From: Octopus vulgaris | Taxonomy: Eukaryota | Assembly (NCBI GenBank): GCA_951406725.2 | Contig: OX597840.1 | Span: 21,080,001 to 21,144,000 of the forward strand | Direction: 5' to 3' | Length of the DNA stretch: 64,000 nt | Shown here: piece by piece, positions 24,586 to 27,500 of the stretch | How the letters are laid out: every line of letters starts with the position of its first letter | Numbering within the stretch: position 1 is the stretch's first letter | Translations under genes and position numbers: made by a program | The notes under the pieces: model-generated | Told to the model about the DNA's origin: nothing | What the model saw: only the letters and a program-made list of their open reading frames with translations | The model's database searches: none

Positions 24586-27500
24586 CTGAAATTTAATAAA
24601 ATAAAAACAAATTAATTATTTCATTTCCATTTTTTTGTTCTTTTCTTTTTTTTTCTTCTTTTTTTTTACTTGTTTCAGTCATTTGACTGCGGCCATGCAG
24701 GAGCACCGCCTTTAGTCGAGCAAATCGACCCCGGGACTTATTCTTTGTAAGCCCAGTACTTATTCTATCGGTCTCTTTTTGCCGAACCGCTAAGTGACGG
24801 GGACGTAAACACACCAGCATCGGTTGTCAAGCAATGCTAGGGAGACAAACACAAACACATACACACATATACGACAGGCTTCTTTCAGTTTCCATCTACC
24901 AAATCTACTTACAAGGCTTTGGTCGGTATGAGGCTATAGCAGAAGACACTTGCCCAAGGTGCCACGCAGTGGGACTGAACCCGGAACCATGTGGTTGGTA
25001 GGCAAGCTACTTACCACACAGCCACTCCTGCAGTTAGTTTTTTTGGTTCTTAATAATTTATACAGTACAAGATTCTGATTATACTACTACTACTACTACT
25101 GCTGCTGTTGTTGTTGTTGTTGTTGTTAAGCAAGACGGGTAAGGGTGATTAGGTGATGGTCTAGGGCTTGGGGGTGGGAGTCTCCAGACCTTGGAAACAA
25201 AAAAAAACCTTGGTCGTCTTGTAGTCGAGGGCTCTTCGTTGACCCCTGACACCACTGGGAGGTGGCCCTCGAAGTCACTGGAAATGGAGATCTCCAGGTC
25301 CAAATTCTTGAATGGCTGCTACTGCTGCTGCTGCTACTCCTACTCCTAATAATAATAATCCTTTCTTTATTGGCCATAAGGACCGAAATTTGTGGGGAGG
25401 GGAACAGTCGATCACATCAACCCCAGTACTCAACTGGTACTTAATTTACTGACCCCAAAAGGATGAAAGGCAAAGTCGACTTTGGCAGAATTTGAACTCA
25501 GATCGCAAGGACAGACAAAATGGTGCAAAGCATTTTGCCCAACGTACTAAAAGCAACCCATTACATCGTTAAATCTCAAAGCTACAAGAACAACGTGAAT
25601 ACATAAGTATTAAATTTCACAGAGTAATCCGAATGCTAAAGGATTAAGATTATGTAAGATTAAGAATTACAACATCCAGAAGTTCAAATACTTACTCTTC
25701 ATAAATACAAAAATGTCGTTCACAGAACACCTCTCTGAAGGGTCTCCAGTCAATAAGCTGCTTATTAGGGAAGCCAAATTCCCCCAATCATCTTTAACCA
25801 AGCCTTTCATTATATTCGGGTCACGAGAAAACTTCAAAGTAAAAAGAAATAAGAGTCACATTACAACAACAGCATATATATATATATATATATATATATA
25901 ATAAAATTAATTAAGGGTAGAAATCAATATTTATCAATTAAAACCAGTGGTCTAGCATATTAAAAAAAGAATCCGAAGATTAAAATATTTATATATACCA
26001 ATTAAGGACTGAACACGAAAAGTGGACAGTCAACATCTAGTCCAGCAAATTGCATTTATATCGGGCCATGCTGATGAAGGCTACAGGTATCCTTGCGGAT
26101 AATAAACGCCGAAACTGATCAGTACATGGATAAGTATTGTATTTCGTATATTTTCACTTGTTTATTGCTTGGGTTTGTGCTGAGTTTGATTTGAGAACAT
26201 AATCTTTTGTGGAGAATGGCGATTTGACATCTATATCTAGCATGTTGACTGTCCACTTTTCGTGTTCAGTCCTTAATTGGTATATATATATATATATATA
26301 TATATATATATATATATATATAATTATCTGAGGGAATATTATTCCTAACTTACAGGGAAAAATTCAATTTAGAAATACTAAATCAAATTTCACAAAATAT
26401 AATATATATATATAAAAATTAGAAAAAACCCCACCTTTTATCAATTAAAAATTAACAATTAAATTACACCTTCTAGAAAATTACATATAATAGAAATATT
26501 AGAATTAAAATAACAATAATATACCGATGATTAAGTAAATTGCAAAAAATAATAAAAATGTATATATTTGGGAGAATAACCTGATGAGTGGCTATATTTA
26601 TATCGAAGTGATTTTACTACTACTATTAATTAATTTTTTTACTATAATCGTTTCTTAAATATAGCCACGAAACAGTAGAATATTTTGGTGAAAATCCCGT
26701 TAAAAGATAGAAAAAAAAAAGCATCTTTAAGTGAATGAAAAAGTGATAATTTGTTGTTTCCAACTCTTACTCACGGCCAAATTAACATTTTACCATTAAT
26801 TCAGTTTTAGCTTAATCTTAATTCATTTTATTTTGGCACTATGATGGAGCAGCGGTAAGCTACATTTTGACATAAAATAATCCAAATTTGGTTCAGTAGA
26901 AAAAAAGTTATGAGAAAAAATGTAGGGCCCAAAATGGGAGAGTAACCCCTGATATTTACTTTGACTTGTAATTTCTCAGTTATTTATAAGAAAATCTATA
27001 CTTTAACCCTTTCATTACTATATTTATTTTGAGATGCTTTGTGTTTCTTTCAATTACTTTAAATATAATAAAGAATTTAGTAAAATAACTTAGTTATCAT
27101 TCAACTAGTGTTAGGAACATAAATTGCGACTAATGTTTGGTGGAAGGTTTTAATTTAAAACTTTTGAAAACAAGACATTTGTACTCAGAGCCAGAGATGG
27201 TTTCAGCCGGGTTGGTAACGAAGGGGTTAATTATAACTATTCAAAAGAACTCAAGTAGAATTTTTTGGTGAAGACCTCATTAAAAGATATTAGATAGGAA
27301 AAAGTTCTGCAGCTTTAAATAGCCAGAAAAAGGTGCAAGGCTGCAGTAGGGTCCTCATTAAGGAACAGTCACAAGAATTTGACAGCAAAGGGTCATGGGA
27401 GGCCTGCTGTGTCCAGTTTGAGCTTTTGGCTGATCAGAATGGATGGGATTGGCATGTATCAAGTGTGTTCACACACACACACACACACACACACATGCAC

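Follow-up and report, generated by a model that had tools for sequence, protein, structure and literature searches.

A head-to-head copy of a hammerhead-bearing tandem repeat in a TA microsatellite of Octopus vulgaris, probably a retrozyme inserted by Penelope-like machinery

The insertion and its surroundings

The window analysed in this study is a stretch of 64,000 nucleotides of the Octopus vulgaris genome (contig OX597840.1, positions 21,080,001 to 21,144,000), in which a short insertion lies between two TA microsatellite tracts, at 25874–25900 on the left and at 26281–26322 on the right. The initial annotation had described a fold-back element bracketed by such tracts, without an open reading frame, in a kinase intron and antisense to the host gene. 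The tracts are indeed present, and no open reading frame of at least 80 amino acids was found inside 25901–26285. The predicted kinase gene also runs on the opposite strand. The intron itself is less firm. Two upstream exons on the minus strand showed weak Pkinase matches (E 3e-4 and 1e-4, below the curated cut-off), the match at 1e-4 being in an open stretch at 28944–29303 with DFG and APE motifs. The exons that flank the insertion, at about 27950–28020 and at 25697–25831 (minus strand, C-terminal lobe), are delimited by GT/AG signals, and we take them to be kinase exons from the look of their motifs. Queried alone, these flanking exons gave no Pkinase or other Pfam match, and a PDB search with a kinase exon gave weak matches only (E 0.14). 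The predicted 3' splice site of the exon at 25697–25831 is 42 nt away from the left TA tract.

The insertion (locus L001) consists of two 5'-truncated arms of the same repeat unit, which are joined head to head with their 3' ends pointing outward into (TA)n. Outer ends in this family fall at site A (about unit position 416) or at site B (about 503), which lies 87 nt further on. The inverted arm (25901–26040, minus strand) covers unit positions 364–503, ends at site B and carries the 87-nt tail, while the direct arm (26034–26280, plus strand) runs from unit position 160 to about 416 and ends at site A. The two arms have a 7-nt overlap in common at their junction (26034–26040). Where they overlap in unit positions they form a perfect inverted repeat of 47 nt (25990–26036 and 26242–26288), of which 39 nt lie outside the TA part and correspond to the 39-bp repeat noted initially. 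A true terminal inverted repeat was considered and rejected, since the left arm continues to 25901. The inverted repeat is a by-product of the insertion, and the element is not bounded by it as first proposed; the real unit is a tandem monomer of 505 nt, present in the window as two truncated arms with only one ribozyme.

Several other repeats occur in the window. Directly to the right of the insertion, a second TA-targeted hammerhead repeat at 26323–26674 is likewise folded back. Its family has a unit of about 336 nt, a helix II of 12–13 bp and 960 candidates, and the ribozyme of this copy is truncated in helix III. The 3' end of this family and site B have a short AT-rich motif in common. 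A third hammerhead-like motif, with C at core position 4, a helix I of 5–6 bp and a palindromic helix III, stands upstream of a TA tract at 63278–63320 (plus strand). Furthermore, 27002–27231 matches a tandem repeat of about 277 nt in locus L275, and 28053–28668 (minus strand) contains two broken frames that we take, again from their motifs, to be PIF1/Helitron helicase-like.

The hammerhead motif

The direct arm carries a type I hammerhead motif at 26066–26129 (plus strand), with a predicted cut after A26124 (H17). Helix I pairs CCATG (26066–26070) with CATGG (26125–26129) over 5 bp, and is followed by the core CTGATGA (26071–26077) and an extra A after A9 (26078). Helix II spans 26079–26110 with an internal loop, and comprises a GGC/GCC pairing (26079–26081 with 26108–26110) and a distal 5-bp hairpin (26088–26101). 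The GAA (26111–26113) leads into helix III, a self-complementary palindrome of 10 nt (26114–26123). All features of the type I class are present, namely CUGANGA, GAA, A15.1–U16.1, H17, helices I–III and an open helix I. A strict type I descriptor matched once in the 64-kb window and in none of 30 doublet-shuffled windows; the Rfam hammerhead models gave no match to the motif at the gathering score, nor at E ≤ 10. Hence, the full type I core, the 5-bp stem I and the 10-nt palindromic stem III of the initial annotation are borne out by sequence and descriptor. The word 'intact' holds for the core but not for helix II, which a two-base change at 26106–26107 shortens from 5 to 3 bp. Among 72 sites, this change occurs in the window copy alone.

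The repeat family

Our searches, which covered a genome of 2.8 Gb in 227 contigs, showed that the window stretch matches a dispersed repeat, with 1778 first-look candidates that are not to be read as copy numbers. A search for the palindromic helix III in its exact form found 83 occurrences in the genome, and a degenerate helix III pattern gave 641 matches against 4 for the control. The unit is an exact tandem of 505–507 nt with a GC content of 0.34, in which position 505 joins position 1 exactly in arrays; the array at locus L059 contains at least 10 full units. Older subfamilies have units of 525 and about 538 nt and are 72–86% identical. Each tandem unit of the family has one type I hammerhead, the copies, which number in the hundreds, sit in TA microsatellites, and the element contains neither a protein nor an LTR. 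The extra nucleotide after A9 is missing in the 525-nt subfamily, and position 10.1–11.1 is often U.U, U.C or G.U across the family.

The stems and the core of the hammerhead are conserved in other genomic copies, where the initial annotation had proposed to look for them. In an alignment of 72 copies, 93.5% of the helix cells pair. Double changes were found in 72 cells against 22 in shuffles (0 of 500), a count inflated by relatedness, and the older rows of this alignment are one column off in helix II. Linked changes in helices I, II and III are also apparent from 122 distinct ribozymes, in a parse whose anchoring on near-consensus flanks overstates conservation but not linkage: CG 93/TA 26 at helix I pair 4, GC 64/AT 26/CG 23 at helix II pair 2, TA 83/CG 22 at helix III pair 3, and GC 75/AT 36 at helix III pair 4. 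Helix III is fully self-complementary in 93 of these 122 ribozymes. All three helices covary across subfamilies that are about 25% apart, and the core is retained in a subfamily that is only 72–79% identical. Among 72 sites found by BLAST alone, with 4 duplicate loci left out, the 11 core positions and H17 are intact in 61. With 1 of 12 columns variable, against 109 of 442 elsewhere in the unit, the core was not significantly less variable (p 0.17). Judged from these sequences as a whole, the hammerhead of this family is under selection.

Folding predictions, which do not include tertiary contacts, suggest how the ribozyme might behave. A lone ribozyme is predicted to fold its core onto helix III (−17.9 kcal/mol, versus −12.0 kcal/mol for the active fold), and hence to hide the core in the monomer. 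The same blocked fold is predicted for two circular units. A duplex of two palindromes has a predicted energy of −13.6 kcal/mol, and cleavage as a dimer through helix III is plausible on these models.

Anatomy of the insertions

The 121 merged sites of the family comprise 81 head-to-head insertions, 35 single-armed ones, 3 complex ones and 2 that run off the locus. Both outer ends lie at A or B in 70 of the head-to-head sites, and 69 of these combine one A end with one B end (p 6e-20 against an expectation of 0.5); a single insertion is B+B (L055) and none is A+A. Two of the 69 repeat the junction of another site and may be duplications. The other 11 head-to-head sites have one end away from A and B. 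Older subfamilies follow the same pattern, with A+B ends in 11 of 11 insertions (22 loci) and in 8 of 8 (21 loci), after 8 of 30 and 9 of 30 loci had been dropped as duplicates or as already counted. Overall, among the 89 head-to-head insertions whose two ends both fall at defined sites, 88 are A+B. Both sites finish in a short TA-rich stretch of microhomology with the target. We also considered whether priming depends on annealing to a pair of long (UA)n tracts, an idea weakened by the older subfamilies, whose site A has only a short TA-rich match.

The arms of the same insertion differ by 1.1%, as compared with 5.4% for random other sites and 1.2% for the nearest other site, and their sequences indicate that both arms derive from the same template variant. 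Further comparisons of the arms were based on 67 of the A+B insertions, leaving out L043 and L190, which have the same junctions as L052 and L164, respectively. An arm is longer than one unit in 33 of the 67. Moreover, 49 of the A arms and 47 of the B arms extend past the predicted cut site, where arm stops do not pile up (5 of 134 stops versus 3.2 expected). Arms exceed one unit, read through the cut site and show no pile-up there, so the principal template is not the linear monomer left by cleavage.

Arm lengths and inner junctions vary from site to site, the ends are asymmetric, and junction overlaps between the two arms are mostly 0–8 nt in the 67 insertions. Rod-like pairing of the junction ends was not apparent, as x+y shows no clear peak. 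Identical inner junctions were seen on different contigs in L164/L190, L111/L133 and L286–L290. Segmental duplication or recurrent microhomology may account for these, as may the re-mobilisation of whole insertions.

Penelope-like elements in the same genome

A GIY-YIG scan of the genome yielded 6136 candidates, of which 150 were listed and 40 loci were read. The genome contains a young autonomous Penelope-like element (PLE) with a two-ORF unit of 4271 nt (L252:728–4998), in tandems of up to three units (L252, L089). Its ORF1 has 439 aa and its ORF2 775 aa, with RVT_1 and GIY-YIG matches in ORF2, and 40 of 40 scored matches to the family are 100% identical. This family sits in (TA)n, is arranged head to head, and has A+B ends in 5 of 5 pairs and also in L089 (6 of 6). 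A second PLE family (L084; 781 aa, 47% identical) also ends in TA. A CxxxxCxxC linker precedes the endonuclease in the PLE protein, as described for Neptune and Nematis (PMC8557442), and by these sequence features the linker fits the Neptune/Nematis type.

The PLEs showed some further features. The pLTR hammerhead of the L252 family has C at position 4. A hammerhead-like motif with a U3–A8 core variant, read by eye, occurs in L068 (minus strand) and in the pLTR of L084; such a variant was described for Cercyon (PMC4209133). ORF1 and ORF2 overlap at a T-run in L084:2937 and L252:1968, which resembles a −1 frameshift site, and PLEs with a frameshifted ORF1 are known (PMC8557442).

An autonomous partner with RT and GIY-YIG that shares its termini with the repeat, as anticipated in the initial annotation, was not found. 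None of the 40 GIY-YIG-anchored loci, which represent a small part of the PLE families, has sequence in common with the 505-nt unit, nor have the two full PLE units that we compared with it; a scan for the B-end motif and the older subfamilies revealed no linked autonomous partner either. PLE-protein matches in family loci fall off the element. Without shared sequence, the link with PLEs rests on layout and target, not on homology. Yet, since the autonomous PLE shows the same layout and ends, the A+B rule belongs to the PLE machinery and not to circles as such.

Proposed mode of insertion

We consider it very probable that the insertion is a truncated head-to-head copy of a 505-nt non-LTR retrozyme family, likely inserted in trans into a TA microsatellite by the RT and GIY-YIG endonuclease of a PLE. 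The earlier description as a non-autonomous, microsatellite-associated, ribozyme-bearing retroelement is thus backed by the family, the covariation and the insertion layout. In this scheme, tandem arrays would be transcribed, and monomers would be released from the multimer by the hammerheads, which probably act as dimers via helix III; by folding, the lone monomer is predicted to hide its core. Against this scheme, self-cleavage failed in 8 of 9 predicted retrozymes of another study (10.64898/2026.07.22.740005). We lean slightly towards religation of these monomers into circles, by analogy with other animals. As the end pattern suggests, the endonuclease would then cut both strands of the (TA)n tract, and each 3' end would prime cDNA synthesis on a single shared RNA, with site A as the start for one cDNA and site B for the other. 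Synthesis of the two cDNAs would end after between 40 and more than 2000 nt, and they would become joined at 0–8 nt of microhomology; the junctions are observed, and the joining chemistry is deduced from them.

Circular or linear template

Two readings of the template compete. According to the first, a linear uncut multimer might serve as the PLE template, with RT subunits starting at A and B of one unit and with the hammerhead as a trimming device or a mere passenger. We regard this as a real possibility, though short of probable. Long arms that run past the cut site would also be expected from a homogeneous linear multimer, which fits most of the data. This would be consistent with in vitro work on Poseidon, in which uncut RNA served as the main substrate (PMC11167929), and with the predicted inactivity of the monomer ribozyme. 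The autonomous 4271-nt PLE follows the same end rule, and in L157 the terminal units of both arms have a variant in common at position 354. Of the 36 variable columns with at least 4 units, 2 have a variant that is common to two units.

Conversely, the other 34 of these 36 columns are singletons, so that variation within an insertion is star-like, and same-register units of the two arms are no more alike than other pairs (1.15% versus 0.86%). Both observations speak against a linear template. The positions of the inner stops also argue against it. In 21 of the 67 insertions the two arms have inner stops no more than 35 nt apart on the unit circle, against 9.8 in permutations (p 0.0004), and among pairs that differ by whole turns they coincide modulo the unit in 13 of 38, against 5.3 expected. 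Both tests were post hoc, and the coincidence was not replicated in the older subfamilies (0 of 19, in a sample biased to one long arm).

These observations may instead point to a circular monomer, copied by a PLE RT dimer from both cut strands, with the subunits positioned at A and B and rolling round the circle. We put this forward as a tentative and rather doubtful reading. It would explain the A+B ends in 88 of 89 insertions, the near-identical arms of several turns and the coinciding inner stops, while the self-blocking fold would keep the monomer circle from being cut again. The multi-unit arms that read through the cut site fit a religated circular template, but do not prove it. Circular retrozyme RNAs have been reported in animals (PMC7229834). 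Among the holders of the 505-nt unit, none was found that is on record as RNA. Contigs from runs presumed to be RNA do cover the unit, and linear and circular forms look alike in them. Four such contigs, from two presumed-RNA runs, start at the position after the predicted cut. This was rejected as a sign of cleavage and attributed to an assembly artefact, because a T insertion 30 nt downstream creates a 31-mer branch at that point.

Other explanations

The 505-nt unit might be a solo pLTR or a 3' fragment of an unsampled autonomous PLE, of the Neptune or Naiad kind. The build of its ribozyme, with a short helix I, a long helix II, an extra nucleotide and a palindromic helix III, resembles that of PLE min-HHRs (PMC4209133); Naiads, which target (TA)n, are known from Octopus (PMC8557442), and the 40 loci that we read were drawn from 150 listed among the 6136 GIY-YIG candidates. 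Nevertheless, we find this explanation improbable. In long arrays position 505 of one unit is followed exactly by position 1 of the next, not one of the 121 + 60 loci of the family continues into a PLE ORF, and three or more subfamilies arose in series, each with a closed unit.

Even less probable, in our view, is that the inverted copies arose by fold-back self-priming of one cDNA or from an antisense template (PMC3846280), instead of by two primings. Arm lengths are compatible with fold-back in 42 of 69 insertions, and 4 of 67 junctions are exactly symmetric, one of them on a 72-nt hairpin. In 27 of 69, however, including the window copy, one arm cannot be nested in the other, which makes simple fold-back impossible. 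Near-symmetric junctions fall on both sides (9 versus 8), and fold-back would leave the strict A+B ends without a reason.

Finally, a MITE or fold-back DNA transposon with a TA target and a chance hammerhead-like motif is hardly credible despite the 47-nt perfect inverted repeat and the TA flanks, since there are no fixed terminal inverted repeats and no constant length among these insertions, whose arms and inner junctions vary by site and whose ends are asymmetric, single-armed copies make up 35 of 121 sites, the units are tandem and the helices covary.

Comparison with known systems

Our results show that the family bears the testable marks of a non-LTR retrozyme inserted in the way of PLEs. 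Metazoan non-LTR retrozymes likewise consist of a non-coding, low-GC tandem unit with one type I hammerhead each, occur as monomers to multimers and are found together with PLEs (PMC7229834; 10.64898/2026.07.22.740005). In contrast, the octopus unit is longer (505–538 nt, versus 170–400 nt; PMC7229834), its monomer core is predicted to be self-blocked unlike that of most metazoan retrozymes, and the available portions of the metazoan retrozyme descriptions contain no counterpart to its strict targeting of (TA)n or to its head-to-head A+B ends. It also differs from metazoan retrozymes in that no PLE homology was found among the sampled PLEs.

The layout is shared with EN+ PLEs of the Neptune/Nematis type, which form partial tandems with an adjacent inverted, 5'-truncated copy, and have a one-ended tail and a (TA)n bias (PMC8557442; PMC3846280). 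The one-ended tail is already known qualitatively from PLEs. The octopus unit differs in having no ORF and a tail of 87 nt, as compared with 30–40 nt in EN+ PLEs. Its hammerhead has the extra nucleotide after A9 and the palindromic helix III in common with the min-HHRs of PLE pLTRs (PMC4209133), but its helix III of 9–11 nt can form 3–4 bp alone, which differs from these. Poseidon of Anolis also has two internal RT start sites that define a tail, with both strands cut and extended at AT-rich targets (PMC11167929). However, Poseidon showed no strand difference in start site in vitro, whereas in the octopus family the two ends of an insertion nearly always use different sites. MRC1 and similar non-autonomous elements of Chlamys are, like the octopus family, non-coding and multicopy in head-to-tail arrangement, and are mobilised by PLEs; unlike the octopus family, they share their 3' ends with autonomous families and mostly have no hammerheads (PMC8557442).

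Our literature search found no cephalopod retrozyme and no quantified A+B rule, although the supplementary lists of PMC7229834 and PMC4209133 may hold cephalopod motifs. The available portion of the octopus repeat annotation (PMC13282606) does not mention ribozymes.

Biological significance

With its single ribozyme, a damaged helix II and an antisense position in a predicted kinase intron, the window copy is likely a dead-end product and probably inert. Lying antisense, it could not cut the host pre-mRNA, in which it is predicted to form a long hairpin. Apart from this predicted hairpin near a splice site, the single copy is probably of little consequence.

The family as a whole has wider relevance. 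TA-flanked 'MITE-like' repeats in such genomes may be misread retroelements. How PLEs build tandem and inverted copies, and whether retrozyme circles act as template, are stated as open questions in PMC8557442 and PMC7229834. Here the family offers a short RNA, two mapped start sites and a near-absolute end rule that it has in common with a young autonomous PLE, and, as this genome also has PLEs that are young and intact, the circle model can be tested in vitro. If the rolling-circle reading were true, the family would be a genomic fossil record of the missing step in retrozyme and PLE transposition.
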